Source of the DNA: Diplonema japonicum
Taxonomy: Eukaryota; Protista; Euglenozoa: Diplonemea
Assembly (NCBI GenBank): GCA_964019335.1
Contig: OZ025755.1
Span: 218,263 to 282,262 of the forward strand
Length of the DNA stretch: 64,000 bases
Direction of reading: 5' to 3'
In this document: positions 28,559 through 55,810 of the stretch, piece after piece
Numbering within the stretch: the stretch's first letter is position 1
Layout of the letters: every line of letters starts with the position of its first letter
Notes under the pieces: generated by a model
Told to the model about the DNA's origin: nothing
Databases searched by the model: none
Seen by the model: only the letters and a program-made list of their open reading frames with translations
Translations under genes and position numbers: made by a program

Positions 28559-30283
28559 TTATTGAATTTTTTTCAAATCGACGAGCGTGCAGGTTTGGTT
28601 GTCTGTCCCGATTGCTTCTTCGTCTATTTCAGGACACAAATTTGTCTCCAACAACGATGTGATCGCGGATGTCGGTGTTGCCTGAGGTCCTTTCAAATGT
28701 GTGACCACATGAGAGCATGCATCCTCATTGTCATACCCATCCCAAACACCATCACAGGCAATAATTATGAACGAATCAGAAGCTGACCTGGCCCTCCGTG
28801 TGACGGTCGGCTGCACGCTGACCGCCTGTTGTGCAGGGGACTTCCCACCGCATTGCTTAAAGTCATAATCGCCAAACGCTCTTGGAACAGAGAGCAGTCC
28901 TTCAATACGGTTGCGAACGACAGAGTACCCAGCAGCGAGAACCCGTTTCACTTCTTCCGGATCATCCAAAGTATGGTCTTCTGACAATGGGACCACTCCC
29001 TGATCGTCTGAGTAAAGAACAGCACGGGAATCTCCTATATTCGCGCAGATTATCTCTGATTCGGTTATTAACACCATACAGCAGGTTGTTCCTACGGACG
29101 AGCATTCCACCGTGAATTTCAATCCGAGCGTTTCGTCAATCTGCACAAAAATGTCCTCCAGTACCTTGTCATCGATGGTACCGTTTGCAGGTAAACGCTG
29201 CAGTAAGATCGTTTCCATGTTGGTGGCGACCCATTGCGCTGTGAATGTTCCCCCGTGCCCGTCGAGGACTGCGAAAACGTGGGTTCCTTTAAGCTTCGCG
29301 GCGTAATGTGCGTCTTCTTGTGTCGATCGCCATCCTTGCATGCAGCCTGTAACAGCTGCCTCTTCGCATAGAATTTCAATGAAGATGTCGCGGACGGGTT
29401 CTTCTAAGAATGTTCCTTTCGTGTCGCACAGAGCCATCAGTATATTGTCCAAGGGGTCTGTGTATTCTGATGTGAACATGCCGCACCTCATGCACATGAA
29501 GGATCTCTCGTAGATGGATATGTCGTAGTTGACCCACAGACCGTGCTTGCTGTCCTTTCTAAAGAGTTCTTCGGCGTGCGGTTTGCACATTGCGATTGAC
29601 GTGTCGTGTAGTGATAGAAACTGTGCCGGCCGGCGGTTGCACGTAACACATTTGTAAAAAAGTTTTTGGAACTGTATTGTCGATGGGTCGGTAGGGTTGA
29701 GGACTTCTTCGGGGATGCCTTCAAGAAGTTCTTTTATAGTGCAGTGGCACCCGTAGTTTTGTTCGTCGTCGCCTTCCAACACCTCTCCTGCGATGTCTGC
29801 AAAATTCTCCTGTTTTATTTTTTCGGGTGTTTTTGTAGATTGCGGTATTTCCCTGTCTAGCACGCTTAGGGAGCTTCCTTTTCTGGATCTCGACGCGCGG
29901 CGTCCGTCTCCTATCGGGGTCAGGCCTTCCCCGAGAAGGACGCTTTGTGCTGGTTTAAGAATTTCGTGTGTGCCGCCTTCATATTTCATTGATTTTTGCG
30001 CCTTCAACATTGTAATGCTGCGGCCTCTCGTTACTTTTCTATCTGCGGTGCTCAACTGCGGTTGTTGTTGTTGTTGTGGTTGTTGTTGTGGTTTTATTTC
30101 GGTAGCGGTGGACTCCATCGGCCTTCCCCTCTCGGTTTCCTCCCTCAGGTACTGCAGCATCTCCACCCTGAAATCTTTCGGCTGCTTTTGAATCAACCTG
30201 TGGACCATCTTGTCAACTATCATGTGCAAGCCGTGCGTCTTCAAGTAGCGCATGTTTTCTACCGAAACCTGTGATTCCGCCAT
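28559..30283 (-). CDS. PP2C/PPM phosphatase with N-terminal RIIa/Dpy-30-like dimerisation-docking helix and a Cys/His (Zn-finger-like) region (~574 aa)
   Basis: MQGWRSTQEDAH, VLDGHGG, ANIGDSRAV, LSEDH, RAFGDYDFK, IACDGVWD, TDNQT; N-terminal YLKTHGLHMIVDKMVHRLIQKQPKD..VEMLQYL; CVTC...C..H...H...CMRC. Start at the ATG after the A-run. Confidence 0.9.
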   Translation of the reverse strand: MAESQVSVENMRYLKTHGLHMIVDKMVHRLIQKQPKDFRVEMLQYLREETERGRPMESTATEIKPQQQPQQQQQPQLSTADRKVTRGRSITMLKAQKSMKYEGGTHEILKPAQSVLLGEGLTPIGDGRRASRSRKGSSLSVLDREIPQSTKTPEKIKQENFADIAGEVLEGDDEQNYGCHCTIKELLEGIPEEVLNPTDPSTIQFQKLFYKCVTCNRRPAQFLSLHDTSIAMCKPHAEELFRKDSKHGLWVNYDISIYERSFMCMRCGMFTSEYTDPLDNILMALCDTKGTFLEEPVRDIFIEILCEEAAVTGCMQGWRSTQEDAHYAAKLKGTHVFAVLDGHGGTFTAQWVATNMETILLQRLPANGTIDDKVLEDIFVQIDETLGLKFTVECSSVGTTCCMVLITESEIICANIGDSRAVLYSDDQGVVPLSEDHTLDDPEEVKRVLAAGYSVVRNRIEGLLSVPRAFGDYDFKQCGGKSPAQQAVSVQPTVTRRARSASDSFIIIACDGVWDGYDNEDACSHVVTHLKGPQATPTSAITSLLETNLCPEIDEEAIGTDNQTCTLVDLKKIQ

Positions 30284-30885
30284 TTTTTTTTCCCGACCTG
30301 AGGGGTGTTGTTTTCTTTGGAAGAAGGAGGAGGGAAGGGAGAACATAATAGTATCGGGAAAGAAAGCATAGAAGACTGTAAAAAAGAAAAAAATGGGGGA
30401 AGGGAGGGGGGGGGATATCATAATGGTCTTAGATATATATGAGTTCGTCCGGGGGGGGAGAAGGATTTCAGAGATCTGGCAAATATTTCTACAGTTGAAA
30501 GAACGGTTGGGACCCATAACGGTTACGCCATTTATGTCATCTTCCTAAATAATCGGGGGAAATACTTTTTTTTTTTCGAATCCCCACAAAAATGCAGACA
30601 TTTTAATCCGGACGAGCTCATATATTCTTGTATTGTTTTTTTTTTTTTTTTTCTTTTTTTTTTTGTTTTCCAAAAAGAAAGAAATCTGATTTTTTTAATA
30701 AAAAAAACGAAAGAAAAGCAGTGCAAAAAAAAAGGGGGAGACAAAGACTGACCAGGGCATCTAAAAAAAAAAAAAAGAACATGGATTTTTTTTTTGTTTC
30801 AACGTACGGGAGTGGGAAGGGGAGGGGGGGGATTTTGTTTCTCCCCCCCCTTCATACCAATCATATAAAAGGGTAGGGGACGCGG

Positions 30886-32054: not shown

Positions 32055-32660
32055 TTAGCTCCTGTCATCAACATGAGGATGAGAAGAAACAGGGCTGGAA
32101 GGGGTAGAGGGGTCAGATGAAGGGCTAGGCGCGACTATAGTCGAAAGCAGTTTCTGCCTGTAAGTATCTGGGGAAGACAGCATTTTTGTAGGGCAACACG
32201 CCGGTAGAGGCGATGTAAGAGACCGGGGGCCAAGCAAGGCACAAGGTGAACTGGGGGAAGAGAATCGATAACTATTACTGGATTGCCTGAGGTTGTCAAG
32301 AGTAGCTGGTGACTGAACAGGGTGGATTGCTCTAAAGGCCGAACCATGGTCACCTGGTTTTTCTACAGGAACGGAGCTTGTGTAAGCAGCTTCTTTGTCC
32401 CCAGGGCCTGGTGTTCCTTCGTCTGTTGAATCTCGCGCCCTCTCACGGTGGAGGGTTTTGCAGCACCCTGAACACACCCTTACCTGCTTGCCCCTGCGGA
32501 CCCCTTCTACCGGCACTCTGAACCTTGAGCATTCTTTGCAGAATATGCACCCACAGTACCTGCAGTGGTGCCGTCTTCGAAATAACCCAAATTCCGCGGA
32601 GCAACCTTCACAGCTGCTCACCAAGCCGTCCTTTTTCCATGTTCCAATCGATTTTACCAT
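32055..32660 (-). CDS. FYVE zinc-finger protein (201 aa)
   Basis: WKKD...CEGC...FGLFRRRHHCRYCGCIFCKEC...RVCSGC; Ser/Pro-rich tail. Confidence 0.9.
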   Translation of the reverse strand: MVKSIGTWKKDGLVSSCEGCSAEFGLFRRRHHCRYCGCIFCKECSRFRVPVEGVRRGKQVRVCSGCCKTLHRERARDSTDEGTPGPGDKEAAYTSSVPVEKPGDHGSAFRAIHPVQSPATLDNLRQSSNSYRFSSPSSPCALLGPRSLTSPLPACCPTKMLSSPDTYRQKLLSTIVAPSPSSDPSTPSSPVSSHPHVDDRS

Positions 32661-33067
32661 TTTTTTTTTTTTTTTTTTTTTTTTGAGAGGGGCAGAGGAG
32701 GGCAGAGGAGGCTCGCGCTCCCTTCCTTTTTTCCACCTTTTTTTTTTTTTTTTTGGAAAAGAGAGACCGTGGGGAACGGAGGGGAAAAAAAAATATGAAA
32801 TAATAAAAGACAGTTTGGCTTTATTTTTTTTTTTTTCCCGCCGGACAAAAAAAGGAGTCGGTGGTAGGTTTTTTTTTTTTCTTTTTTTTTTTTGTCCACA
32901 TCAGGCAAGAACACCGTTTCAGTAGTTGGAGAGCACTGTATCTCATCCCGTCCGCTTTTAAGTTGGAAAAAAAAAAGTGGTAATTTTTTTTCAAGGGGGG
33001 GGGACCACACTCCTCTGGTATCTCTTTTCTTGGTTCTGTTCTTTTTTTTTTTTTTCCAATTTTTTTA

Positions 33068-34237
33068 TTAATCCAGCGGGGATGAGATGGGGAAGGGGAG
33101 ATGAGAATCTTTTTTTTTATTATTTATTTTTTAAATTTATTTTTTTGGAGAAGACCAACCTTTATTCTTTCCCTTCAAAAGAATGGTTTGCGTACCCCGG
33201 CTGAGCACGAGCAACCCGAGCAAGGTTATAACAACCCCGAGCAAAAACAAACTCAAATCGTGAGGGGGGAGTCTCGTATACTCCTTATAAAATATCAATC
33301 CGGAAGCAACCCCGGACACAACCCACAGCGACTGATAAATAGGAAGCACATACAACACATTCTTATACATTCTCAGCGCCTTGTTGAGGTAGTAAATCTG
33401 ACCCCAAACGGAAAGAACAGCGAACAAAGCACAAACTGTAAAGGCACAACCCGTCGCCGGTGTAAAAGCATGTGTCAACGTAAACAATATAGATATCGCA
33501 GCCTTTGCAAACATTATTGAATGGCCACCCAACACCCCAGCAAACGACGCGTGGACCGTCGGGTAAAACTGCGGTCCGAATTTTGTAACAAATTCAACAG
33601 AGCTGTTCGGGCTCGCGACGGTGGAGAGATTGTCAAACGCCCAGAAACATTCTAAATACTCCGGTTGTTCCCCACCGAGAACGCCTTCTTTCCGCAGCTC
33701 GCATTCTTTCCTTCGAAAATTTTCGATATATATAAGACTCACCAATAAAACACTTCCCACCCCGATGGCGTACGCCACCAACGAGGGGTTGTAAACCAGC
33801 TCCAACAACAACCCATATGTTAAATCGGGCTGTTTGTATGAACCGTAATAACATGCTGTTGACGATCCCAGGAGGGTGATCGCACAGCCTGCTATGTCGT
33901 GCAGTGTGAGGATTTCGTTTTGAAACCAAGGTGTTACCAGCACATTTGCCACCAAGGTTGTGCTGCCCAAGGCGGCTAGCCTTGACAGTGGGATTAGCGG
34001 GAGGGCAGCGAGATCCATTACGCTTGCTGCGATCATGAGTAATATCCCGGCCCACCACCGGACTGACCACAGCATGGTTTTTCGTTTTTCGGCCGGGAGG
34101 CCCTCGTTGTGTGTGTGGGCCAGTTTTTGTAGATTTACGCCTATGCAGGATATGAAGCATGCAGAGACAACCAAGGAGTCTCCCACAACGTCTCGCATCA
34201 GTTCTCCGTTCGCGAAAGAACTATTTTCTAGTATCAT
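33068..34237 (-). CDS. NIPA-family Mg2+ transporter; join(33160..34237,33068..33108), ~372 aa
   Basis: IGVNLQKLAH, RWWAGILLM, ALPLIPLSRLAALGS, QIYYLNKAL, PIYQSLW, GLIFYKEY; multiple TM segments. The terminal exon after the A-rich intron gives ...KDSHLPFPISSPLD*. Confidence 0.88.
33109..33159 (-). other. Probable 51-nt GT-AG intron, A-rich
   Basis: GTTGGT...AAATAAATAATAAAAAAAAAG; contains an in-frame stop, and removal gives a 13-codon complex-sequence tail. Confidence 0.6.
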
Positions 34238-35423: not shown

Positions 35424-38400
35424 TTAAAAAAGCCTGGTTTCACCACCTTTTGGGTTCTGCAGTAGACAGCCGAACTATTTATTTTTTATAAAAAAAAAGA
35501 AAAAAAATCCCACCCCCACCACCACATACCTTCAAGGTCCCTTCCAACTTCTCTCCGTCTGGCGTGAACAGGACGCCTGCCTGTATTCGCCCGCCGTACG
35601 CGATTCCTTCGAAATACATCCCAGACTGCAGGTAAGCCGATCCATATCCATGAGGGACATTACCATTGACAGTAGGGCCCGTCCAAAGCAGACCCTTGTG
35701 AAAGACCCCAATGAGGGGGTTGCTGGGAGGGTGAGGGAAAGCAGTTAAATTAGAAGCTGTGATGGGCTGCGCTTGCAGGGATTTGTGAAAATTCGCGTAT
35801 TGAGCAGGCCGAGGGACGTCCAGGAGGTACTTCAGCCCATGTGAGTTCGAGCTGAATGCAACTTGCGTCGCACTGCTAATCGTGTTCGGGGATCGCAACT
35901 GCAACGAGTCTATTGGTATTCTCCTTGACACCTTCGCCTCTCCTTCTTCGCCTTCATCATCCGTCTGCTCTGTGTACTCTGGGATGTTGGGGAATGTCAC
36001 CTTTGCCCAGCCGTGTGCTAGGGTGTTCACGAAATGCCCGTTGCAAATCACCCCGGTTTGGTATTTTATCATGGAAAACCCACGCAGCTCGCCGTCGCTG
36101 AAGCTCCCTGTCAAGGTCGACCCTCCTATGTAGTCCTTCGTGCCCTTCCCGTTCAGCATCCAGTCCTTGAATTCACCCCTCCATCTTATATTTTCCTTTG
36201 TCAGGCTCTCGTCGGTGTACATAACGGTGTGGCAGTCTTCGCCCTCAAGGGTCACACCTGTGTCGGACCACGTGTAGCTTCCGGTGAGGCGGACTTTGGC
36301 TTCTGGGAGGGACATTGTGCCTTCAGCGAGTCTTTTCACGTTGTGGGTGAAGACGCCTTGTTCTGTGATGGAACACCCTTCGACTGTCCGTGTGCCTTGA
36401 ACCATGATGCCTTCCACGAAGTCGCCGACCCATCGCTCCGTGGGGGTTAAGGAGTTGATGATCGCGGAGCCTTTGCCAGACAGCTGCCCTTCCTTGGTCC
36501 GCAGCTCGTAGATGTTCCCGTTGCACGTCATGCACTGTATGTTGTCGGTGGGCCTGCCTTGTTCGTCACGTTTGCCCTCAAGCAGGATGTATGATTCTTT
36601 CTTTGTTTTCCCGTAGTTTTCAATTGGGGCCTGGTGGTGGATCCCATCCGGGCCCATGAGCTCGACAAGGCCTTCCGGGCAGAAGGACGAGTTGAACTGT
36701 CCCTCCACCTTCGTCCCCTCGAAGTAAAAAAGCTTCCCGTGCCCCATGGGAACCCCTCCGCAGAAGTTCCCCTTGAAGACCCAACCCTCGTCTGCATAGC
36801 CGTACGCGGCAGGCCCGTGGAGCTTTCCGTTCATCCATTCCCCTTTGCAGGCGAAGTTCAGACGTATCTCAAGACCGCTGCCATGTCGTTGCCCTGCAGA
36901 CCAACTACCTTCGTAGTAACCGGTTTGGGAAGGATAGATGAGGATTCCATGTCCATGGGGTTTGCCTTTCTTCGTTTCACCGGAGTAACACCCGGAGGGC
37001 AGCATGAGCGTGATGCTAGGGGGTCGGGATGGCTTGAAGATAGATGGTCGTTTCTCCAGCTCAACAGCGTTGAGGACGCGGAGGGAGACGGAGAGGGAAC
37101 CACCCCCGCGAAGGGAGTCTTCCGTGAGGACGTCCTCTGAATCGAGGAATGTGTTGTTCATTGAGTTGTTCGTCGACTGCGGTGCAGGCTTCGTGTAAGC
37201 AGTGATGATGTCGGACACCCAGTTCTGCTTTGCAGTTGCTAGGCGGTCGCGCTCTGTTGTCGCCTCGGTGATCCGCTGCCGGATCAACCTGATGGCCTTG
37301 CGTGTTGCGCACCGCTTCTGCTCGTATTTCACGTAGTTCGACTCCATCTTCATCATCATCCAGTTGTGGATCACATATTGCACTGCATGGTAGTGGTGCA
37401 CGCTCCAGAACGACGGATCGAACTTCTCCCCCGACGCAAGGGACTGGATCGCCTGCCTGATGTCGATGGAGAACACCTTCAGCGACAGCGTCATCACAAC
37501 ATCCATGTATCGAACCCGCATGTGCTTGTCAAGAGGGATCAACATCGATCGCAACTGTTTCTGCGTGCACAGGAAATCAGAGGACCTGCCCATGCCCATC
37601 AGAGCACTCATGGAAAACGGCGACGACAGCCACAATGGTTCGGGTAGCTTCTGCAATATCCGAATCAACGCGTCTGCCGAGGCCAGTCCCGTGCCTCCTG
37701 GGTCTTCCTTGATCCACTCTTCCTTTAGGATATCGAAGGCTTCGAGGTCACGTGTCGATTCTTGCAAACCGCGTGCTCGTTTTTCATCTTCAAAGTGCTC
37801 TATCAAGACGTACACGAACAGGTTCAGAAAGATGAAGCAGCCTAGCAGCAAGAACAGTACGAAGTAAGCCCTTGCCACGCCTGTCGAGACACCGCAGTCG
37901 TCTGTGCAGCCAACGACGTCCTCAGTGGTGCCGACCATCATGTCGTTCCAGCCCTCTGTGGTGGACACCTGGTAGAGGGTCACGAGTGCCTTGTACAGGT
38001 TGTCGAAGTTGGACCATCTGTTGAAGTCCTTCGAAATGGCGATCCGCCCAAAGAGGTCCACGCCGAACACACCGAACACGAAAAACACTACAAACAGCAA
38101 CACAGCGATGTTCATGAGTGACGGCAGGGCAGACATCATCGTGGCGACGATGGTCTTGAGACCCTCGGCCCTTCCCAGCAGACGGAGCATCCTCCCCACT
38201 CGCAGGACGCGAATACCAGAGGTGGAGGCTGTGGAGGACAGGGCGGCGACAAGGCTGACCACCACAATGAGGAAGTCAAACCTGTTCCAACCGTCCTTGA
38301 AGTAGTAGATGGAAAAGGCCATGATCTTAAAGACAGCCTCAAAGGTGAAGGCCACCACGAAGAACCAGTTCGCTATGAACAAAAAATCCGTCATCCCAGA

Positions 38401-41400
38401 CGACTGGCCCTCATGCTGCAGTGCAAGCGTGATGGAGTTCAACACAATGAGCGTAGTGGTCACCATCTCAAACTCCTTTCTGCACGCAATGTAGTGCACC
38501 CAACTAAGTATCCATGACTTCTGCACACATGCTGGCTGAGGGAGGTACCCGTCCCTGATGCTGGCGTGTAGCAGTACACGTTGGGCTTGTTGCCAGTTTC
38601 TCTGTGCATCTGTTAACAGCAGTCGGTTTTTCCCTTGTTTCTCCTTCGTGATCGCGAAGCTTTGGATCAGAACACCAATGAACAGGTTCACGAAGAAGAA
38701 CTGCCCCAGCACGATGAACGCCACAAAGAACACTGCACCGTATGGATTGGAGTTCAACCGCGGCCCCCTCCCTGGCCCCGGGGCATCCATCGTCCTGTAC
38801 ATCATCTCGCGCCACTTCTCACCGACTGAGATCTGGAAGAGGGTGAACATGCTCTCGAAGACGTCGTCGAAGGTGAACCAGATGGGTCCCCAGGATGCCT
38901 CTGCCTGGACGTAGGAGACCCCGAAGGCCTCGCGCACCTCCATCATGTAGGTCCCGTTGCAGGCCTCTTCTGTCCGGATCGCAGGGTTGGAGCACTCGTA
39001 CAGCGCTCCCTTGAAGAGGGACACCCCGACAATGGCGAAGATGAACCACACCATCGTCGACACGAAGATCACGTTCTGAATGGACGGCATCGCCGACATC
39101 ACCGCAGTCAGCACCACCTTCATCTCAGGGGAGCCCGAGGTAACTAGGCGCAGGATGCGCAGCGACCGGAAGCTCCGCAGCGTCGGCACGAACAACCCGA
39201 TAACTGAGGTCACCACAACCACAGCGTCGATCACGTTCCACTTGTCGTTGAAAAACCCGCACCACCCCCACGCCAGGATCTTCGTCACCATCTCCAACGA
39301 GAACAGCGACACGAACACAAAGTCCCCTACCCGCAGCACCCGGTACAGGCCAGGCTGGTTGTCCTCCACAGACGGGTTGTCAACCGCAATGAAGATCAGG
39401 TTGATAACAATCACCACAAGTACCATCAGGTCGAAGTAGGTCCATGTAACTACCTTTAGGGCATACTGACGAAGAATGTTCGGTGCTGCACAGCAGCAGT
39501 CGGGATCTGTGTCCTCACCGGGGCTTGAGAACCTTGCGAGGATGCTGTCCAGGTTGCCAACCTTTTTGTTGAACTCTGCAAACTTGAGGTTCTCGAAAGG
39601 CTGCGGCGGGATCTCAACGATCTTGCCGTGCTCTTCGCCTGGCGGGAAGAGGGTCGACCTGCCAACGATTGTCTTGGCTTTCTTCTGGACCTGGACAGAC
39701 GCTTTGGTCAGCCCCGACATGCTCCAGACGGAGAGTCGTCGTTCACGGCGTTTCTTTGTACAGAAGGAGGAACCGGCAGATCCCATCTGCATGGAGACGG
39801 CGAAGAGATGCTTTTCGTCTTCAAAGGCGGAGGACCTCCTGTCGGCGCCGAGGAAGCCGTTCTTGTAAGAGAAGGGAAGGGTCACGTCCCCTGGTGAGGA
39901 CACGGTGTCGGGAAGCTTGAGGACGTCAAGGTCGGGCTCGATGTCCAGTGTCGCGCTGGAGGCAGCGGGGCGCAGTGTCTGCTTGCCGCTCTTGTTGTGC
40001 TCTTCATCCGTCGCGCTTTCTATTTCTAGACAGAAGTCAGGATCGCTTCTGACCTGCGGGATTGCCACCACCTCCCCATCGGTGGTCTTCGCTTTCTGTT
40101 GCGTATCTTGGTCTCTGTCTGTCACGTTGTCCTTCGCCGCGTCATAGATGGGTTCGTGCTGGTGTACGCCAGGTTGGATCCCGTTCTCTCCTCTGTTGTT
40201 GGATTCTGCGACTATCTTTTTCGGACGGCAGCAGTCCCAGATCCCTTCGCCCCCTTGTACCTCGTCTTCTCCTGCAAAATTGTCGATCAAGATTGCGATG
40301 AACAGGTTCAGTAAAATGTAGTTCCCCAGCAGGAACAGCGTCACGAAGTACGCGATCGCCGCTGCTCCGGTTCGTTGCACAGTCTCCTTCATGATCTGTG
40401 CCCAGCTCTCGCCTGTCACGACCACGAACACCGTCAGCGTTGAGGCACCGAGGTTCTCGAACCCACACCGTCCATTGTCGTCCTTGCACGCGAAGAGCTG
40501 CACCCCCATCACAGAGTAGATGAACAGGAACAACATCACAATGATGCTGAGGTACCCAACGTCGATGACCGCATTGCTGATTTGCTTCAGGATGATGTTC
40601 AAGCCCCGCCATTTCTTTGCAAGCCGGAAAACTCTTGCGAGCCTGAAGCCGCGCAGGGCAGATGCCCCTGACCCACCACCCGTGGGCGAGGGATGCGTAA
40701 TGATCTCCGGAATGGATACCAAAACCAGCAGGAAGTCGAAGGTGTTGTAGTTGTCAGAAAAATACAATTCAGGTGTCATCCCGACCATCTTGATGATGGC
40801 TTCAATAATAAAAATGAAGGTGGACACATAGTTGATCCAGTAGATGGTGTCGAGCCAAGTGCTGCCGATGGTGTAGTGGTCGGTGCCGAGGGCGATGATG
40901 TTGATGATGGTGACCATGACAACCAAAATGTTGAAGGCCTTATGCTTGCTCAGTTTGAACAACGTGTTACCCAAGGTTCCTTCTTCGTAGTACCCCACCT
41001 TGCGCAGTCGGCGTATTCTTTCTCTGTTTAGCAACAGTTTCCTTGCACCAGGGGAGCCAGGGAGGTCGACTGGAGCATCATCATACATACTGCTTTGTAT
41101 CTCCTGTATCGCATCGTCTGCCTCTTGAAGTGCGCTGAGATCGTCGATTGACGTTTGCAGCTGGCTCATGTCAAGTCCGTCTGGCGCCCCGTCTGACCTT
41201 CGCGAAACGCCCAGGTTGTTCTCCATCATTCTTGGTGAGAAGAATTGGGAGCCTTCCGACTGGGTTCCTGTGCTGTTCTTTTCATCACTCTCTGAGCTCG
41301 GTTTTGTGCTTTGAACGGGGGACTCTAATTTCCCCCCCGACAGTGGGCTCAAGCTTGCCTCGCTGGCCTTTAGGTCCGGGCTCTTGATCCACTCGTCGCC

Positions 41401-43296
41401 TTCGAACTCATCACCGTCAACACCGTACTCCCCTTCGTCCAGGTCCTCTTCAGCAGCCGCTTCTTCCACCATGATAGGCATGGCCACCACAAGTAAGGGA
41501 TGCGCTGCCGACGCTGCTATGAATGTTGCTGGGGACAGCCGCTCCAGCACCGGCTTCGCTGTGACCATCTTGTTGTCTCGTTCGTGTGAGTACACGGAGG
41601 ACAGCATCGCAAGGATCAAGTTTACAGCGAAGACGTTTCCAAGAAGAGTGCAGAGGAAGAAGTAGATCCAAGCGATGTGGCCGTTGGCGTCTTGGACGTC
41701 CTTCATGTCGTCGGGCCAGTCATCCAGAGACATGAGCTTGAAGGTGAGGAGGAGGGAGCTGAAGATGTTGTCGAAGTTCAGGACCTCGCGCTTGTAGGTG
41801 CCCTCGCGGATGATGCAGCTCTGTCGGACGCCGAGGCCGTTCGTGGAGCAGGAGCGCCCGCTCCCGCAGGTCTCGGTGTCGTTGAAGACCAACCAGGGGC
41901 GGGAGTTGTAGTCCCCCGTCACGTCGTAGGTGGTCTCGCTGTCCCCTTGGGTCGAGAAGAAGGTTGCGTTCACGGTCCCCTCCCACGGGGGGTCCAAGTA
42001 GCACCGTTGATGGAAGTCTCCAGAAAAGAGCTGTATCCCCAGAATGGCGAAGACCCACATGAGGAGGAAGAACAGGAGGAAGATGTCGATGGCGAGCGGG
42101 AGCGCCGAGGCGAGTGTCGCCATCAGCTGCCGCAACTCCTTCACCCGGTTCATCGTGCGCAAGGGTCGCAGGCACCGCAGCAGCCGAAGCGCCGTGAAGT
42201 TCCCAGACCCCGCCGCCAACGCCGCATACCCAGACAGCACGATCAGGAAGTCCAACCGGTTCCAGAAGGGGACAGGGTCAGACCGCAAATACGACCCGGG
42301 GTGCATCACAAACCCGAGAGCCAGGATCTTCAAAACCATCTCGATCGTGAAGAGCGCCTGGAAAGTGATCTCGGACACCGAGGTCACCTCCTGCAGCCAG
42401 TCCACGTCGTTGAACAGCGGGTCGTCCAGCACAAGCGCGAACCCGTTCAGAATGATCAGCAGCAGCACACCCCTGTCGAACCACACATTGTCAATGACGT
42501 GGATGAGGGACATACGGAAGGCGGAGCGGGGGTGGATGAAGTACAGCACGTTGTCCACCACGTTGTAAGGGAATTCGGACTCTTCGCCGTTACGGCTACG
42601 GCGGGTCTCCCCGAGCACCTGCTGGCACATAGTGCGCTTGATCTCGTGCGTCTTGTACCTCGAAAGGGGCGGACGGTACTCACGGCGGAATGTACAGGAC
42701 TTGCTGGAGTCGGTGATGTCGAGGTGGAGTGTGTTGTTGGACACAGCATGCACGATGCAGGGGACCCATGTTGCTTCACCGCATTCATTGGGGGGGCCTT
42801 GGAGGACGCCCTCTGTAGAGGACCCCACGGGAGGGACCGTGCTGGTTCGCCATATAATGGACTTATCTATGTCATTGTGGATGGCGATGAGGCCGCCTTG
42901 GTAGATGCTGAGGTGGTGGGAGCGGTGTTCGAACCCACCGGGGCCTGTGAAGAGGTCGCTGCATGACCACTCACCGAAGAAGTCTTCCCGTGTGTACCGC
43001 GACCACTCGGGGTCCGTGTTGGGGCCGGCACCGTGTCTCTTGAAGTGGCAGCGGACCTCTTTGTTGGAATGCTTCCCGCCACGAAATGTGAATCCCAAGA
43101 GTTTTGGGTCGCTTCGTACTATCTCGATAGCGTGCTCTATGGTGTACATCCCACTTCGGCTGTCCTCATGTCCAGAACACAGGCCGCCTATGCTGTACTG
43201 TAGCTCGTCAGTTGCCGATTTGAACATGGGCATGACGGAGCCCCTGCGCTTACGCATCACCTTGCCTTCTTCTCCATTGTGAGCAGCGGCGGGCAT
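35424..43296 (-). CDS. Four-domain voltage-gated Ca2+-type channel alpha subunit A with C-terminal MORN repeats; join(35530..43296,35424..35474), ~2605 aa
   Basis: Four 6-TM repeats with S4 segments (LRLLRCLRPLR; LRGFRLARVFR; LRSFRSLRILR; IRVLRVGRMLR); pore loops SLDDW, TGESW, VGEKW, TTEGW; EF-hand-like EDPGGTG; MORN-like YSGETKKGKPHGHG, YYEGSWSAGQRHGSG. First ATG at 43296. Confidence 0.93.
35475..35529 (-). other. 55-nt GT-AG intron near the 3' end of channel A
   Basis: AAG|GTATGT...AAATAAATAG|TTC; gives terminal exon FGCLLQNPKGGETRLF*. Confidence 0.75.
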
Positions 43297-44191
43297 GTCC
43301 GCAGCAGGGCACACTCAAGAGAAGTGGAGAAGAGAAGGAAAAAAAAGAAAAAAGGGGAAAAAAAAAGAGAGAGAAAAGAAAAAACACGTACGGACGGAAG
43401 GACCTGAACTATTCCCGAAGAAAAGAAATATAAATAAATAAAAAAAAAGGAAGAAAGAAAGAAACGAAGAAAAGGCTACCCTACTCTTATTAACCGATAT
43501 ATTATCTCATGCATTTTTTCAACGAGGTGAGGGGAGGGGGGTGGGTAGCGCACTGTGAAGGTTTTTTTTTTTTTTTTTTTTTTTTTTGACCAGCAAATAT
43601 GAGAAGAAAAAAAAAAGCGACATAATAAAAGTAATAAGAGAAGCAAGAATATATAAGTTGTGTATTGGGAGAGGAGAGGTTACCTTTTTTAATTTGTTCA
43701 ATTGAAGAAAAAAAAATCTTGAACTCGCCTTAATGACTAGCGACCTCTGTTCCTAAGCGTAATAACAGAGGAAGTGAAAAATACCTTTCTTCCTGGTTAT
43801 GTACATTTCTCCTTCTTTATGGTTATATGTCTTTGTTGTTCGCACGAGCAAAAAAAAGTTTTTAAAGTTGCGAAGGTTTTTTTGCTCGGCACAAGTTGCA
43901 TATAGTTATAAACTCATTTTTTTTTTTTGAAAGATAAATATTTGTAACAAAAAGAAAAAAAAAGGAAGAAAAAAAAAATAAAAAAAGTTTAAACGGCTCA
44001 TTTCCTTTCCCCCATGGAAATAGAGGTTGTGTTATTAAATAAAAAAAAACACAATGAGCACTAGAACTACTTTCCTTTTTTTTTTCTTCTTCCCTTAGCA
44101 AAAAGAAGATTATAAGGCTAAATGGCTGCTTGTCAGGTACCCTAGCAGGACCTACTTGGTTTCTTCGTTTTTATTTTCCTTTTTTTCTTTT

Positions 44192-47100
44192 TTAAGTATC
44201 ACTGGGCCTTCGAATTGAATAACCGAGGTCAGTTGTGGCACAACAGTGAGGGCGGTATGTCAGATTCATCGAATCATCCTGTTTTTTTTTTTTTCTTTTT
44301 TCTTTTTTTTTCCCTCCCACCGGAAACAAACATACCACAACAATAGAAATTTTCCCATCAGGAGATGACAGTCTGCCTGTGTTAGGGAACCCCATGATAA
44401 CATCACCTTCAAAGAGCTCTCCTGTTTGGAGGAGGCCCTTGCCCTTTCCGTTGGGTGTACCCTGCACACCCACCTCTCCCTCCCATATGAACCCTGAAAG
44501 GAAGAAGCCTTGGGTGGTGAGGTCTGGTGACGAGATCACACCCCACCCTTCAGCCTTCCCGTTCACCATCCTCCCGTTGAAGTGCACCCCCGTCTCTAAG
44601 TAGTGTACGGTGCAGAACCCGTTCAGAGCTTGGTTTTCGAACCTGCCTTGTTCCGTCCTGTCTTTTAGCTTCCGTGTTCCTTCCTTTATCTCATAGTTGT
44701 CGAAGGTGCCTGTCCAGTCTTCCATTAAGTGGCCGTATCGTAGCCACGTAGCCCTCTCGACCTCGCCGTTGTTCACTTCGTACGCCACAATGGACCCCGT
44801 CTCCCGCACCTCTAGTACGCCGTCCACGAGCATGCCATCCTTGAAAGTCCCTATCTCTTTGAAGGCCAGCCCGTCGATGGCTCGCACGCCCTGTACAAGC
44901 GCACCGTCCTGGAAGACGCCCTCCCACAGCTCCAACGGCGACAATGAGTTTATGGATGCGGTGCCCTTCCCGGACAGCCGTCCGCCCTCTGTCTCGATGT
45001 TGTAGATGTTCCCGTTGCACGTCATGCACTCGATGGTCCCTGTCGGTCGGCCTTCTTCATTGCGTTCGCCTTGCAGGAGGACGTACGTCTCACGCCGCTT
45101 CCCGCCCCAGTAGTCGAAGGCGGCCTCCACGGGTGGTGAGAGAAAAGGTGCCGAGACCTTCCCCCGGACAGGTGCGAAGGAGCCGTCGAAGAAGCCTTCA
45201 ATGACAACGCCCGACAGGTGGCGCAGTGTGCCCTCTCCCACAGGCACGCCGTTTGAAAAAACCCCTTCGAAGAACAAGCCGTGCTTGGAGTCTCCCCAGT
45301 AGCCGCTTCCTTCCAGTCGGCCAGTCGACCAGCTGCCTTTGCACACGAACTGGTTCTTCACATGGATGCCAGTCCCATGCCGCTGCCCCATGTCCCAGTC
45401 GCCCGAGTAGTACCCGTCCCCGTTGTTCCTGACATACAACCCCGCACCGTGTGGCACGCCTTCTCGCAGCTCGCCGTAGTACTTCCCTTTATTCAGCACT
45501 GTGGTGACGTGCTTGACCTTGCGCTTTTTGAATATCGACGTGAAGTCTTTCAGATCCTGGTCGGTGTAGCTCTCCGGTGAGAAGTTCCGTTCCACGGGCG
45601 AGGTCACGCGCTCCAGGTGGAACCCTATGAAAGCTTGCCGCAGGATCACTTGTCTAGCTTCGTCTTGAACCGCTTCTGCGCACCAGTCACGCAGCTGCGT
45701 CGCAACCGTAGCGAGCAGGGAGGAAGTAACTGTTTGGCGCCGTTTTGTGATAGAGATCCTGTGGCGGTACCACTGTTGGGTGACGTAGAGGCAGGCGTGG
45801 TGGTGGTGGATGGACCACGCGTAAGAGTCGAAGGCGTACGGCGAGAAACCCGACTCCAGGCTGAGCACGTTCTGCAGCTTCACATCGAAGAGCTTGAGGC
45901 TGAGCGTCTTAACGACGTCCCTGTACTGCACCGTGAGGTCCTCGCTCAGGGGGATCAACATGGACCGCAGTTGGTGCTGCGTGCAAAGGAACTGCGACCT
46001 CTTCTTCGACACTTTCGCTCCTTCGAACATTGCAGCCACAGACCATGCTGACTTAAGCCACAGTGGCTCTGGAAGATCACGCACCACCTTGATGCACGAT
46101 TCAGCACTGATAATGCCTGTGCACTTCGGGTCCTCAAGCAACCATCGGTCCCGCAATGCCTGCAACGCCTCCTCGTACCCGTGGCCATTCTCGTGCGCCG
46201 TTTGTGAGACACCCTCCAATTCAAAGTGTTCTAGTAGCACAAACACAAATAGGTTCAGGAAGATGAAGACTCCCAACACCATGAATAGGCTGAAGAAGGC
46301 TCTTGCCACACTTCGCTCGACACCGTCCTCTTGTGAGACGGCGAGCATCATGTCGTTCCAGCCCTCTGTGGTGGACACCTGGTAGAGGGTCACGAGTGCC
46401 TTGTACAGGTTGTCGAAGTTGGACCATCTGTTGAAGTCCTTCGAAATGGCGATCCGCCCAAAGAGGTCCACGCCGAACACACCGAATATGAAGAAGACGA
46501 CGAACAAAAGCCCTGCGATGTTGATGAGCGACGGCAGGGCGTTGATGATGGTGCGTAGCACTTTTTGCAGAGTCTTCGCTCGCTTAAAGAGTCGGAGCAT
46601 CCTCCCCACTCGCAGCACGCGGATGCCAGAAGTGGAGGAGGCTGTGGAGGACAGGGCGAGGCCCACCACACTTGCAACCACAATGAGGAAGTCGAACCTG
46701 TTCCACCCCTCGCTGAAGTAGTGCATCGAGAAAATTGAGATTTTGAACGCAGCCTCCGCGGCAAAGATTAAGATGAAGATCCAGTTCGAGATGTAAAGGA
46801 AGTCCGTCATCCCAGTGGGCTGGTGGTAGTGCTGCAGGGCAAGGGTGATGGAGTTCAGCACGATAACTCCTGTGATGCCTGTCTCGAAGTGCGGGGACAT
46901 GACCACATCGTGGATCAATGGGAAATTGGCACCCATCCACGTGCGGTGTTTGGTGTAGTTCCTCTGTAGTTTCGTGTGCAGGATGACCTTCTGTGCACGT
47001 GCCCACTCGTACTGGTTGTCGGTCATGAACAGCTTCCTGTCGCACCCCTTCATCTCTGCGAAACTGTGTATCAGAACACCAATGAACAGGTTCACGAGGA

Positions 47101-50100
47101 AGAATTGTCCGACAACCACGAACGCCACAAAGAACACTGCACTCGTTTGGTTCCCGTTTTTCCAAGGCCCCCTCCCTGGCCCCGGGGCATCCATCGTCCT
47201 GTACATCATCTCGCGCCACTTCTCACCGACTGAGATCTGGAAGAGGGTGAACATGCTCTCGAAGACGTCGTCGAAGGTGAACCAGATGGGTCCCCAGGAT
47301 GCCTCTGCCTGGACGTAGGAGACCCCGAAGGCCTCGCGCACCTCCATCATGTAGGTCCCGTTGCAGGCCTCTTCTGTCCGGATCGCAGGGTTGGAGCACT
47401 CGTACAGCGCTCCCTTGAAGAGGGACACCCCGACAATGGCGAAGATGAACCACACCATCGTCGACACGAAGATCACGTTCTGAATGGACGGCATCGCCGA
47501 CATCACCGCAGTCAGCACCACCTTCATCTCAGGGGAGCCCGAGGTAACTAGGCGCAGGATGCGCAGCGACCGGAAGCTCCGCAGCGTCGGCACGAACAAC
47601 CCGATAACTGAGGTCACCACAACCACAGCGTCGATCACGTTCCACTTGTCGTTGAAAAACCCGCACCACCCCCACGCCAGGATCTTCGTCACCATCTCCA
47701 ACGAGAACAGCGACACGAACACAAAGTCCCCTACCCGCAGCACCCGGTACAGGCCAGGCTGGTTGTCCTCCACAGACGGGTTGTCAACCGCAATGAAGAT
47801 CAGGTTGATAACAATCACCACAAGTACCATCAGGTCGAAGTAGGTCCATGTAACTATATCGTAGGCAACCTCCCGCGCGCGTGTCGCGTCCAGGGGTCCG
47901 CAGGTGGTGATATTTGTTTTTGTAGAGGATTCACGTGTGAAAGCCAGGAACCTTGAAAGTCTTGCGGAGCATGTTCTGCGGGGCACGTCAGGCGCGAAGT
48001 GCATTTCATCAGTGTTCTGACACGGCAGCTGGTCGTCTGTAACACACCTGCGGATGGACGAGGTCCCGATGACGGGCTTGGCACGCTTCTCAACGGTGAC
48101 TTGCACCCCATCGTCTTCGAAGGTGTAGACTGACATGCTGCGCTCCGCCTTGCGTGCTCCTATGGGTAATAAAATTTCGCTAGCGATGTTGAAACCGGAG
48201 TCCTTGCGTCGTGATCTTAGAGACCGCCGCTTGGGCCCAGCACCAGTGGACGGTGCCTCGGTATTGTAGGTGGTGGTGCTCCAGCTCACTTTACTGGTGC
48301 TCATATCCATGAGGGGGCGCATCGGTGCTGGTGGACGCTTCTCGCTCTCGTCTAGGTCAAGGCAAGGCGGTGTCGACACGATGATGCGGGGCACCAGGAA
48401 GTTGTCGTCCACAGCAGGTTTCAGGTCCATGCCTGACGCATTCAGATTGTCAGCGATGTCCTCCAGTAACGACGTGTTGTTGTTGTTCACATAGACCTCT
48501 TCACCCTCTGGTGGTGTGATGACAATGTCAAACACAGGCTGATCCTCGGACAGCAGTGTCACTGGCTCCGACAAGATGTCGGGGTGCAAGTTGTCCTGCT
48601 TCTTGCCCTTGGTAGGGCTCGCAACGTTGGACTCCAACACGTCATCCTCGGAGCTCAGCAAGGACAGAAAGCTTCTCTCCTTCGTCACTGCAATATCATC
48701 CCCGCCGGTGCTGTCGCTGTCAGGTTCCACTAGCCTTAGCTCTAACACAGGCTTCGCTTTCTTGGCCTCTTCACCTTGCTCTTTCTCCACTGCAAGTTCA
48801 ACGCTCTTGCTGAAGCTATCGATCAGAATGGCTATCAACAGGTTCAGTAAAATGTAGTTCCCCAGCAGGAACAGCGTCACGAAGTAAACGATCGCCGCTG
48901 CTCCGGTTCGCTGTATGGTGTTCTTCATGATCTGTGCCCAGTTCTCGCCTGTCACGACCACGAACACCGTCAGTGCGGAGGCACCTAGGTTCTCGAACCC
49001 ACATCGTCCATCGTCGTCCTTGCACGCGAAGAGCTGCACCCCCATCACAGAGTAGATGAACAGGAACAACATCACGATGATGCTGAGGTACCCAACAGCT
49101 GATATCGCCTCGGAGACCTGCATCATGAATTCCTCAAGGCCGTTGAAATTCTTCACCAGCCTGAACATCCTAGCGAGCCTGAAGCCGCGAAGCGCGGTGA
49201 ACCCTGTGCTACCAGAGCCGGGGCTTGGTGTGATTATCTCCGGAATGGATACCAAAACCAGCAGGAAGTCGAAGGTGTTGTAGTTGTCGGAGAAGTACAA
49301 CTCAGGTGTCATCCCGATGATCTTGAGAATGGCCTCCATGAGGAACATGTGCACAGACACGAAGTTGATCCAATCAATGAAAGCCTTCCACGTGCTACCA
49401 ATGGTGTAGTGGTCCATCGAGAGGGCGATAATGTTCACAACAGTGAGGGTTGTGATGAAGACCTCGAAAGGTGCTGACGTGCTGAAGTCGTACAAAACGT
49501 CGACGACGGGGTTCTTCTGATAGTTGGGACACATCTTGCACCTGATGCTCTCGTCCATCGGTTCCTCCTGCAAGTAGACGGTGTTGTTCCACAGCAGAGA
49601 GTGTGTAGTAGCTAGCAGCGTCGGCTCGTCTTCGCTGAGAAGGCTTTCGTCTTCGTTGTCGCTGCACTCCTCCAGCTCCGATTCCTCAATCAGAAACGGC
49701 AAACAGATAACAAGAACAGGATGGAGCAGTGAGCCACCCAGCAACGAGCTTTCCGACAACGCAAGCACCTCAGGCCGCAACCTTGTTGCACGTTTCTCCT
49801 TCTCTGTTACATATACATTCGCCAGGACGGCCAGGATCAAGTTTACAGCGAAGACGTTTCCAAGAAGAGTGCAGAGGAAGAAGTAGATCCAAGCGATGTG
49901 GCCGTTGGCGTCTTGGACGTCCTTCATGTCGTCGGGCCAGTCATCCAGAGACATGAGCTTGAAGGTGAGGAGGAGGGAGCTGAAGATGTTGTCGAAGTTC
50001 AGGACCTCGCGCTTGTAGGTGCCCTCGCGGATGATGCAGCTCTGTCGGACGCCGAGGCCGTTCGTGGAGCAGGAGCGCCCGCTCCCGCAGGTCTCGGTGT

Positions 50101-51613
50101 CGTTGAAGACCAACCAGGGGCGGGAGTTGTAGTCCCCCGTCACGTCGTAGGTGGTCTCGCTGTCCCCTTGGGTCGAGAAGAAGGTTGCGTTCACGGTCCC
50201 CTCCCACGGGGGGTCCAAGTAGCACCGTTGATGGAAGTCTCCAGAAAAGAGCTGTATCCCCAGAATGGCGAAGACCCACATGAGGAGGAAGAACAGGAGG
50301 AAGATGTCGATGGCGAGCGGGAGCGCCGAGGCGAGTGTCGCCATCAGCTGCCGCAACTCCTTCACCCGGTTCATCGTGCGCAAGGGTCGCAGGCACCGCA
50401 GCAGCCGAAGCGCCGTGAAGTTCCCAGACCCCGCCGCCAACGCCGCATACCCAGACAGCACGATCAGGAAGTCCAACCGGTTCCAGAAGGGGACAGGGTC
50501 AGACCGCAAATACGACCCGGGGTGCATCACAAACCCGAGAGCCAGGATCTTCAAAACCATCTCGATCGTGAAGAGCGCCTGGAAAGTGATCTCGGACACC
50601 GAGGTCACCTCCTGCAGCCAGTCCACGTCGTTGAACAGCGGGTCGTCCAGCACAAGCGCGAACCCGTTCAGAATGATCAGCAGCAGCACACCCCTGTCGA
50701 ACCACACATTGTCAATGACCTGCACGAGCCTGATCCTGAAGGTGGACTTGGCCGGGATGCACAGAACGATGCGGTCGACTACGTTGAAGGGGTAGTCCTG
50801 CCGACGGGGGCCAAGCGTCTTGAGGGACATCACACGACGGTGCTCCCGGAAGTTGAATCGTGACAGGGGCGGCTTGTATGTGCGCGTGAAGGTACCTATG
50901 GCAGCTGTCTCGTCAACACGGAAGACAAGCAAGTTGGGTGTGACAGCGGTCACAGAGATGTCTTCGATGTAGCAGGTGACATCGCTCTTCAGCCACCCTT
51001 GAGTGCTGTGCCCCACGGCTGGCACGGATGCTGTCCACCACGTGCAGGAGTTGTTGTGCTGCGTGGTGATGTGTGAGCCGTGTAGACCGAACTTTTTGAC
51101 TGACACACGAAATGCTTGGTGCTCCAGCCCGCAGTGCTGCGACGTGAAGTAATCCACGCACGACCACTCGCCGTAAAAATCGTGCTTCTGGAAGCTATGG
51201 CTGTCCGTCTCTGGGGTGGCTTCTACGCCGTGTCGCTTGAAGACACACAGCACCTCTGTGGTGGGCTTCATCTTGGGAAGGGGTTTGTATGTGAACCCGC
51301 AACATTTCTCTTCCGAAACGCAGTACTCCTTCGCGTCTTCTATTGTGTAGTAGCCGATGGAGTAGTCATGTGTTTTTGCAAAGCTGCCTCTGCGGTAGAT
51401 GAGGGGGTCGTCTTTGCTGGTGAATTGTGCGTACTGTTCAAGAAGACGAGTGGCGGTGGAGGCAGAGGAATGGGTTTGGCGAAGATGTGTGATCAGGTCA
51501 CGGATAGTGGGGTAAATTGCGTATGTGAGGTTTGTAGGGGAGTATGTTCCGGAGTTTGCGTACCGCAGGGCGCTGGACGTGGAAGTAGTGGGGTATTCCG
51601 AGGTCCTTTCGCG

Positions 51614-51650
<37 letters not shown>

Positions 51651-51892
51651 TCCTCGTCTTCTTTTTTTCGTTCTTCGTCCTCTGTTGCGTCCCCTTCGCT
51701 GGTCGTCTCCTTGCCTTCCTCTTCCTCTTCCTCTTCCTCTTCCTCTTCCCCCTCCCCTTCTCCTTCGTTGTACTCAGTATCGGACCGGAACTCCAGCACC
51801 GGCGCCCCCTGACCCATTGGTACGGTGTACGAAAAAACTGGCGAGTTGGCAATTGCGCTCTCGCTTTCCTCATCCATCATGCTTTCCTTCAT
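44192..51892 (-). CDS. Four-domain voltage-gated Ca2+-type channel alpha subunit B with C-terminal MORN repeats; join(44336..51892,44192..44278), ~2547 aa
   Basis: Tandem paralogue of channel A; pore loops SLDDW, TGENW, VGEKW, TTEGW; acidic N-terminus; MORN-like YYGELREGVPHGAG, YYSGDWDMGQRHGTG. Confidence 0.93.
44279..44335 (-). other. 57-nt in-frame GT-AG intron, A-rich, near the 3' end of channel B
   Basis: GTG|GTATGT...AAAAAAAAAAAAACAG|GAT; explains GKKKEKRKKKKQ in the ORF translation. Confidence 0.8.
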
Positions 51893-53066
51893 TGATACCG
51901 TGACAAACTATCTCGTTCCTGCATTGTGGGTTTTTTTTCCTCTTTTTTTTCCCCTTTCTTCCTTGCCCAATCCTGCGGGGGTGATGTTTTTCCCCCCCCC
52001 CCTTTTTTTCCCCTTCATTTCTTGTTTTCAATATGGACGCAACAGGGAAACCCCCATCGAAAACACCGTTTCATTCCTTGCCGAGATGACAGCTTTCATG
52101 TTGAAATCATAAAAGTTAATCTTACGCTGTGCTGCCTGAGGAACAAGCTCGTGGGAGGGCGTACCGTCTGCTGTCCGAGGCCGGGTACACAAATCCAAAA
52201 CAGCAAGGCTTAAGCATCAGAGGGGAAAGGGTGCACAAAAAAAAAGGGGGGCACCATCGTAGAGATGACTATTTTCTTTTTTTGATGAAAAGCAGCAAGA
52301 AAAACAGGAGTAAGGGCAAAAGGCAGCTAGTGTATTTCTCGTTTTTTTTTTTTTTTTTTTTTTTTTTGTTTCCTTTTTTTTTTTTTAGTTCATTTTTCTC
52401 ACCTTGACTCATTCCCCTCTTCCTCTGTTTTCATTGTTGATGTGTTTAGTCGTCCTAATGTTTTTTTTCTTTCCTTTTTATATTTATTTATTTACTTTTT
52501 TTTTCTGCCTCTTGTCTTACAAAAACACTTCGGCAACACCGGTTCTTGCATTAAAAGAAAAAAGAAAAGAAAAAAAATACTGCTGAGGGGAAATAATGTG
52601 AGGAAAAAAGAAATATTGCCGGTTTTAAATACATACGAGAAGGCAGACCCTTCAAACAAGGCTATATTTTTTCCTCCTTCTCCATATTGTTCCTCAACAA
52701 TAGGGGGGGGAAAGAAAAATAAAGAAGCAAGAGACAACCTCAAAACAGGATAACCCAGGCTTGCTCTGACGGATGGTAGGGGAAAACTGGGTCGAAAAAA
52801 AAAAATGTAAGGCAGACTTACTTCTTAAACTTTATAAAGGAGTTATGACTAACGAATTGCAAGCGTATTTTGCCCTCAAAAATACATCAAAAAAAAAGCA
52901 AACCTTAGCCCCCCTTTTCTGAGGTTTTCTCAGGAGAAGAAAAAAAAGACGGGAGGGGAAAACAAAATGTGCAATAAAAAAACAACATAAAACGCGCCCC
53001 CCCCCCCCCCCCCCCCCATAGACTGAGAACCGGAAAAAGGAAAAAAGAGGACACATCTCTTTTTTT

Positions 53067-54574: not shown

Positions 54575-54828
54575 GTTCTTCTTTCTTGCTTCTTTCTTTT
54601 TTTTTTTTTTAAATTATCCCCCCCGCTCCTAAAGGGTTGATTTTTTTTTTATTGTTGTTTCGTCTTTTTCTGAAGTTGAATGAAGGTTTTTTTTTTCCGA
54701 AGGGGTGGGGGGTCTATGGCTGATGGTAGTAGATATAAGTCAGCAAGCATTCGTGAATCACACCCTTCACCAAACTTTCACATAACACTTTCAGTTTCTT
54801 CTTTTTTTGTTGCAGCTTGTTTGGCACT

Positions 54829-55190
54829 CTAGTCGAAGAGACCGAAGTCGTCCATGCCCTCGTCGGACTCCTCGACAGGGGCAGCCGCGGCGGCCTGTGT
54901 GTGGTGTTAAAGGAAAAAATGAAACATACAGGGGCAGCGGCGCCACCAGCGGGGGCAGCAGCGGCAGCGGAGCCACCACCACCACCACCACCACCGCACG
55001 AGGCAAGCTTCGTGTTGCCCTCAGCGATGATCTCCTTGATGTCCTTACCCTCAAGCTGTGCGAAGAGGTCCTTGATCTTGGCATCGTCGGCCTCGCCACC
55101 AACAGCGGTCACGATCTTCTTGACGTCCTTCTCGCTGGGAGACTCGGTACCAGCGGCCTGGGCGAGGAGGTAGGCGGCAATGTATCTCAT
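54829..55190 (-). CDS. RPLP2: 60S acidic ribosomal protein P2, copy 2; join(54930..55190,54829..54894), 108 aa
   Basis: MRYIAAYLLA...LEGKDIKEIIAEG..KLAS, Ala/Gly hinge; after the 35-nt intron (54895-54929, GTATGT...ACACAG) ends EESDEGMDDFGLFD*. Confidence 0.95.
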
Positions 55191-55313
55191 TTTCTTTTTT
55201 TTTTAAAAGTAAAGGGAAAGGCAACAAGCTGGGAGGGAAATGATGCAGACAAGTCGCACAAGAAAGCAAGCAATGACTTAAATAAGAAGGACTGTTGCAT
55301 GTAGTTCAACACT

Positions 55314-55675: not shown

Positions 55676-55810
55676 TTTAAGTGTTTTTTTTTTTTTTTTT
55701 TTCCTTCTTTTTTAATTCAATCTTTTTTTTTTTTTTTTTTTTTTTTTTGTTTAGGAAGGAAAGGAGATTCGGGCACAATACAGGGGGAAAAGAACAATAA
55801 ATGAATAAGA

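Follow-up and report, generated by a model that had tools for sequence, protein, structure and literature searches.

The stretch of DNA analysed here (the window) comprises 64,000 nucleotides (nt) of contig OZ025755.1 of Diplonema japonicum. Its minus strand carries two tandem open reading frames (ORFs), gene B (51892-44192) and gene A (43296-35479), of 2566 and 2605 codons counted from the ATG, respectively. Each encodes a four-domain channel that continues in frame into a glycine-rich tail of 400-500 amino acids (aa), in which repeats resembling MORN repeats start at 36987 in A and at 45481 in B (Table 1). Our results indicate that this is a real, transcribed and lineage-restricted fusion of two known parts.

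Table 1. Features of the tandem channel genes A and B (positions in the window).
Feature	Position	Strand	Evidence
Gene A: channel of four domains plus MORN tail; spliced product 2605 aa	35424..43296	-	ORF, Pfam, transcript-derived proteins
A terminal exon, 16 codons plus stop; last residues R-L-F/L, same in four named Diplonemidae orthologues	35424..35474	-	
A terminal intron, GT-AG, 55 nt	35475..35529	-	sequence and transcript-derived P0008/P0009
A MORN tail: ~130 aa of canonical MORN fold, ~200 aa of degenerate hairpins, ~85-aa disordered insertion, highly conserved terminal module	35530..36987	-	
A proximal C-terminal domain (common to other four-domain channels), degenerate segment at the IQ position (from 37398) and poorly conserved linker	37012..37791	-	
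A domains I-IV (channel body); filter D523/E961/E1490/E1778 region; four basic S4 segments	37792..42480	-	
A N-terminal family-specific module: small alpha/beta unit, then predicted 8-strand beta-barrel (low-confidence model)	42508..43209	-	
Gene B, four-domain channel with MORN tail; exon 1 of 2519 codons; 2547 aa with the probable intron removed	44192..51892	-	ORF, Pfam
B probable intron, GT-AG, in-frame, 57 nt, near the position of A's terminal intron	44279..44335	-	sequence only
B MORN tail, without A's ~85-aa disordered insertion	44336..45481	-	
B channel body, domains I-IV; filter D/E/E/E; four basic S4 segments	46220..50701	-	
B N-terminal family-specific module, after an acidic low-complexity leader; no Pfam match	50768..51415	-	
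Exact A=B tract, 887 nt, domain I	A 41612..42498; B 49833-50719	-	
Exact A=B tract, 691 nt, domain III	A 38762..39452; B 47166-47856	-	
Exact A=B tract, 141 nt, domain IV S5-pore	A 37936..38076; B 46346-46486	-	

Four Ion_trans stretches were detected by Pfam in A (668 bits) and four in B (653 bits). In all four domains of both proteins, S4 carries at least four arginine or lysine residues in register, at every third position. The filter ring is D/E/E/E in A, B and five orthologues and E/E/E/E in P0014, and is thus all-acidic and lysine-free in the eight proteins examined. These features and the conserved proximal C-terminal domain are those of four-domain voltage-gated calcium and sodium channels, as the initial annotation had claimed for two paralogues of this type. 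However, A and B differ from such channels in the added MORN tail and N-terminal module, in the D/E/E/E filter, and in having no canonical IQ motif: the IQxxxR pattern is absent at the IQ position of both. Together with the missing IQ, a quick tree in which the tailed family did not group with Cav1/Cav2 speaks against membership of those metazoan high-voltage-activated (HVA) classes. The two four-domain channels are likely voltage-gated and likely pass calcium, a current and a selectivity that we infer from the sequence. Weak Pfam matches to Hirudin and Nop14 were dismissed as noise.

The MORN-like repeats that had been noticed in both tails are supported by several searches. Scanned as a C-terminal part alone, A scored 29.5 bits and B 25.5 bits against the MORN family (PF02493), above the Pfam gathering cut-off of 22.5, whereas the whole proteins remained below it (20.9 and 18 bits, respectively). 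Automated annotation therefore often misses the tail. A precomputed MORN match is absent in four of the seven named orthologues. A separate Pfam scan of seven Diplonemidae tails matched MORN in each of them. A's tail holds a loose MORN 14-mer nine times (mean 1.5 and maximum 6 in 500 shuffles), and the rest of A has none; in B's tail it occurs seven times (shuffles, mean 2.2, maximum 7), a count that is indecisive for B by itself. Searching the PDB with phmmer returned RSPH1 (E 6e-17), Toxoplasma MORN1 (4e-13) and junctophilin-1 (3e-8). The degenerate middle of the tail resembles MORN clusters by language-model features (0.93, with 10 of the 10 best matches from one family), a score that is uncalibrated for parts of proteins. 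A glycine-rich tail arising by chance was rejected on the basis of the PDB matches, the predicted fold and the structural matches to MORN proteins.

An AlphaFold2 model of the tail, built on a 7-sequence alignment without A's last exon, was almost all-beta, with a mean predicted local distance difference test (pLDDT) score of 71.7 and about 90 over residues 11-330. It contains 28 strands up to residue 352, then a disordered stretch (356-454) and the terminal module with low confidence. Foldseek placed MORN1 proteins at the top (E 2e-11) and also returned junctophilins. MORN proteins likewise ranked first in an exhaustive structural search, with Z scores of 16.2 (root mean square deviation (rmsd) 3.2, 124 residues aligned), 15.4 and 14.8; MORN4/Myo3a matched with Z 14.8 (rmsd 2.0, 118 aligned) and junctophilin-2 with Z 12.5. 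The tail is thus predicted to be a long single-layer antiparallel sheet of beta-hairpins with a canonical MORN fold at its start, and the modelled sheet would present a peptide-binding groove as used by junctophilin and MORN4. Inside the modelled tail there is no long backbone helix of the kind that lies on the convex face of the junctophilin sheet, the upstream linker lying outside the model. Among A orthologues the terminal module is the best-conserved part of the tail (56-89% identity); that of B is 36% identical to A's, and the C-terminal end of B differs. The linker between the IQ position and the tail is the least conserved C-terminal part; D. ambulator aside, its identity to A among Diplonemidae is 17-39%. 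In the ten family proteins inspected, no hydrophobic segment was found after domain IV (best 19-residue Kyte-Doolittle mean 0.84-1.27, compared with 2.6-2.95 around DIV-S6), no FFAT-like motif was found, and the net charge of the tail ranged from 0 to -17 and was never positive.

Both ORFs read through a GTATGT donor into low-complexity sequence. The initial annotation had described an ORF uninterrupted from channel to tail; this is correct for nearly the whole tail, except that the last 16 codons of A lie behind a 55-nt intron. The transcript-derived proteins P0008 and P0009 match A without mismatch from aa 1283 and aa 1741, respectively, to the end and share the same spliced ending. Transcripts of A thus do not stop short of the tail but carry it together with domain IV in a single piece. 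Judging from its sequence, B probably has a terminal intron as well (44335-44279). The probable last exon of B (44192-44278, minus strand) encodes an end unlike that of A and holds a Cys-Cys pair, for which lipid modification is a speculative possibility. In the public gene model of the D. papillatum orthologue P0011, unrelated sequence follows residue ~3506, exactly at the position of A's terminal intron, and the last exon of that model was probably mis-called.

The N-terminal module of ~230 aa occurs in all family members whose N-terminus is known, and part of it is repeated in hemistasiids. None of the seven sequences scanned gave a Pfam match to this module, and its profile matched 0 of 193 other four-domain channels retrieved (best E 1.2). 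In the low-confidence model of the module (mean pLDDT 56.5), residues 86-183 form an 8-strand barrel; the best structural matches, to FBXO31 (Z 9.2) and the HP1028 lipocalin (Z 7.5), are near background. Foldseek returned nothing at E<=0.001 with this model, and the ESM Atlas gave no usable match. A short T-x-E-x-A...GF unit, repeated in hemistasiids, lies ahead of the predicted barrel and may be PAN/apple-like.

When the C-terminal 810 aa of A were compared with full-length proteins, 89 of 3906 candidates matched, and nine of these stood apart, namely two near-identical transcripts and seven named diplonemid proteins. The latter come from Diplonema ambulator, D. papillatum, Flectonema neradi, Rhynchopus euleeides, R. 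humris, Artemidia motanka and Namystynia karyoxenos, and all seven have the tail. These matches point to a diplonemid near D. ambulator as the most likely source of the window. A profile search of 1.84 billion representatives, read over the best 150 of 18,098 matches, returned four family members; among the other 146, two had channel domains. P0113 (Apiculatamorpha spiralis) and P0145 (a Namystynia karyoxenos paralogue) have channel domains and no tail. The comparison set of 193 channels consisted of 80 from the C-terminal search, 111 from a channel search (best 120 of 967 matches), P0113 and P0145. The tail profile matched none of them (best E 7.4), and a widespread architecture was accordingly rejected. 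Within the searches made, the MORN-tailed four-domain channel was found only in diplonemids, a restriction that holds for these searches, in which no channel was recognised as trypanosomatid or euglenid in the best 120 of 967 channel matches.

In the quick tree of domains II and IV (49 rows), the nine tailed channels formed one clade, with a Shimodaira-Hasegawa-like approximate likelihood ratio test (SH-aLRT) support of 100, suggesting that the fusion arose once, before the split of Diplonemidae and Hemistasiidae. This clade lies inside a wider group (SH-aLRT 99) whose named rows are channels of diplonemids and other euglenozoans. The positions of rows P0350, P0308 and P0254 were not used, since another domain had entered the alignment in place of domain II. 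Diplonemids also have further four-domain channel paralogues without the tail (P0255-P0350), at least four more of them in D. papillatum, apparently a large and unstudied expansion. Database names in the tailed family are generic; for example, P0011 is called 'Sodium channel protein 60E'.

Several known systems resemble parts of this architecture. According to the accessible text of PMC12172032, TbCaV/FS179 of the euglenozoan Trypanosoma brucei is also a four-domain Ca2+ channel made of a single subunit; at 2693 aa it is close to A and B in size, and it is flagellar and essential. However, that text gives it a QESE filter in place of the D/E/E/E of A and B, and a retained pre-IQ and IQ, and does not mention MORN; the two are compared here by description. 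In the junctophilin-CaV1 pair, as described in the accessible part of PMC8916002, MORN repeats likewise adjoin a four-domain Ca2+ channel at its proximal C-terminus, but the animal MORN protein is separate and has a backbone helix and a C-terminal membrane anchor in the endoplasmic reticulum (ER). A and B carry the repeats in the channel chain itself, in larger number, mostly degenerate and without an anchor, and the absence of a C-terminal membrane anchor after domain IV in ten of ten proteins led us to reject membership of the junctophilins. MORN1, MORN4, RSPH1 and further MORN proteins of the axoneme or cytoskeleton share the beta-hairpin repeat fold (PMC7725318, accessible text) and are the best sequence and structure matches to the tail, but they are soluble scaffold proteins rather than parts of channels. 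P0113 and P0145, members of the same wider clade, are the closest post-domain-IV matches outside the tailed family among the matches listed, but they end ~65-85 aa past the post-domain-IV region and have neither the MORN tail nor the N-terminal module.

A literature search, in which subscription journals were mostly missing from coverage, found no description of a channel-MORN fusion, and none of the literature found joined diplonemids with voltage-gated calcium channels or Diplonema with MORN repeats. The word MORN occurs 0 times in the accessible main text, supplements excluded, of two surveys of four-domain channels (PMC5824947, PMC6259924). With the tail also missing from all the other channels retrieved, the impression that this architecture had not been characterised as a family was upheld.

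Identity between A and B is mosaic. In addition to the three long exact tracts, four more of 31-63 nt lie in domain II, and exact tracts make up 1916 of 7767 nt in total. Four-fold degenerate sites differ between A and B at 0/151 positions in domain I and 1/123 in domain III, and at 31/42 in the N-terminus, 26/30 in the proximal C-terminal domain and 68/98 in the tail. Over the membrane segments this divergence is graded (0, 1, 9, 11, 15, 17, 25, 29 and 39%), as conversion tracts of different age would give. Compared with A, the D. ambulator orthologue reaches only 82% identity in domains I and III; for the repeat parts of the tail its identity to A is 70-89%, and that of B is 36-43%. In region trees the A-B distance is zero for domains I and III, and for the N-terminus, C-terminal domain and tail B falls outside all A-type sequences of Diplonemidae, at nodes of weak support. 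D. ambulator also has a B-type N-terminus and B-type linkers. Its assembled isoforms change from one type to the other at aa 263, 851, 1284 and 1823, near the boundaries of the A/B tracts; such chimaeric isoforms are probably products of assembly across shared A/B tracts. The simplest and likely reading of these sequence comparisons is that A and B go back to an old tandem duplication and that their membrane domains have undergone gene conversion repeatedly, and gene conversion between channel paralogues has a precedent in the accessible text of PMC8476164. Conversion would keep domains I, III and parts of II and IV alike while the N-termini, linkers and tails diverge. Because the pores would be held alike while the tails diverge, the two channels would be similar as pores but differ in their addresses or regulators.

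As to the role of the tail, the most likely one, to which we give about even odds (a probability of roughly 0.5), is that of a scaffold within the channel itself, which binds protein and thereby fixes where in the cell the channel lies. Depolarisation would open the channel and Ca2+ would enter, and the tail would fix the channel to a cytoskeletal or flagellar protein, keeping the Ca2+ signal local. By analogy, the likeliest site may be the flagellar or cortical cytoskeleton, because TbCaV is flagellar (PMC12172032) and axonemal MORN proteins head the match lists. This scaffold reading is preferred since the tail has no membrane-tether features and since MORN repeats, in the accessible text of PMC7725318, are protein-protein modules that form tail-to-tail dimers through their C-terminal repeats, membrane binding not being supported; PMC8916002 likewise describes MORN repeats as binding protein, with a CaV1.1 peptide in the groove. 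The self-anchoring channel proposed in the initial annotation thus stands best as anchoring by protein binding, and its junctophilin-like membrane-contact version is weakened by the lack of an anchor, an FFAT motif and positive charge. Several observations weigh against the scaffold. The flagellar analogy rests on PMC12172032 and not on the tree, TbCaV being outside the sequences retrieved, and none of the transcripts retrieved covers the tail of B; a search with that tail among 4911 full-length candidates, shorter B-type fragments being outside it, returned only P0001 and one unrelated MORN protein. The tail resembles MORN structures firmly over no more than its first ~130-150 residues, after which the hairpins diverge, and the terminal module, the most conserved part among A orthologues, is also the poorly modelled one (pLDDT 48-62, without the last exon). 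In two hemistasiids the most canonical first repeats are eroded (23-24% identity to A, with insertions), and a conserved junctophilin-type groove therefore cannot be the function of the whole family.

Other readings of the tail were considered. It may instead regulate its own channel in cis, its groove binding the segment after the degenerate IQ or a cytosolic loop, tuning gating and replacing control by calmodulin or a beta-subunit. MORN repeats 1-3 of junctophilin bind a CaV1.1 peptide in their groove ~50 residues after the IQ, a binding needed for normal channel clustering (PMC8916002, accessible text), and here, with no canonical IQ in place, the repeats begin ~135 residues past the IQ position. 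The linker in between is, however, the least conserved C-terminal part, which is unfavourable for a fixed cis ligand, and we regard this regulation as unlikely. Somewhat less likely again is an end-to-end pairing of tails, in the manner of MORN1 (PMC7725318), that would cluster channels (A-A or A-B) into arrays. The terminal module and the C-terminal R-L-F/L are highly conserved in A orthologues, as such pairing might lead one to expect, but the terminal module and end of B depart so far from those of A that the feature is not common to the pair. The channel might also act as its own junctophilin, its tail bridging the plasma membrane to the ER or another organelle through a resident membrane protein, given the fold likeness to junctophilin-2 and a straight 28-strand sheet estimated at ~13 nm in length (0.48 nm per strand). 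Such a length is within the range of membrane-contact gaps. Still, with no transmembrane anchor, no FFAT-like motif and a neutral-to-acidic charge in ten of ten proteins, no long backbone helix in the tail model, and better matches to axonemal MORN proteins and MORN4 than to junctophilin, this bridge is the most doubtful of the functional alternatives. Finally, the fusion or the A/B identity could be an artefact of assembly or gene calling, since long identical tracts can be collapsed by assemblers and the transcript assemblies are A/B chimaeras. However, the sequence around the junction of domain IV and tail is unique, and the junction is found again in seven further species, in transcriptomes as well as genomes, the A/B identity is graded, and the D. 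ambulator isoforms switch between A-type and B-type at the same boundaries, making an artefact highly improbable.

Extending the scaffold reading, we tentatively suggest that the diplonemid protein is a four-domain Cav acting as its own scaffold, with a MORN adaptor built into one end and a beta-barrel, sensor-like module into the other, as a fused and independently evolved counterpart of the junctophilin-Cav pair. The tandem genes would keep one pore and sensor set by gene conversion, and their two tails would send one design to two cellular sites; this wider picture is less probable than the scaffold itself.

The role of MORN repeats beside calcium channels is debated between membrane and protein binding, and this natural fusion puts the repeats and such a channel in one chain. 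The domain-restricted conversion also offers a natural comparison, with two channels in which domains I and III are nearly the same and the cytosolic parts are different. For diplonemids, an abundant marine group for which no channel study was found in the literature search, the family offers a starting point for work on electrical and calcium signalling. Since D. papillatum has a tailed orthologue (P0011), the fusion reaches a lineage with a model species. D. papillatum is genetically tractable.

Other genes in the window include, directly downstream of A, a FYVE zinc-finger gene and a NIPA magnesium-transporter gene (32055-34237, minus strand). A PP2C phosphatase (177 bits; 28559-30517, minus strand) has a long N-terminal extension with Cys/His-rich and short helical segments. 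The regions 5075-27493 and 52930-58122 (minus strand) hold RRM, CS plus cyclophilin, PALP, ABC transporter, IQ, GT8 and dual-specificity phosphatase ORFs. Every ORF in the window with a Pfam match is on the minus strand, which suggests that the genes are clustered by strand, as they are in euglenozoans.

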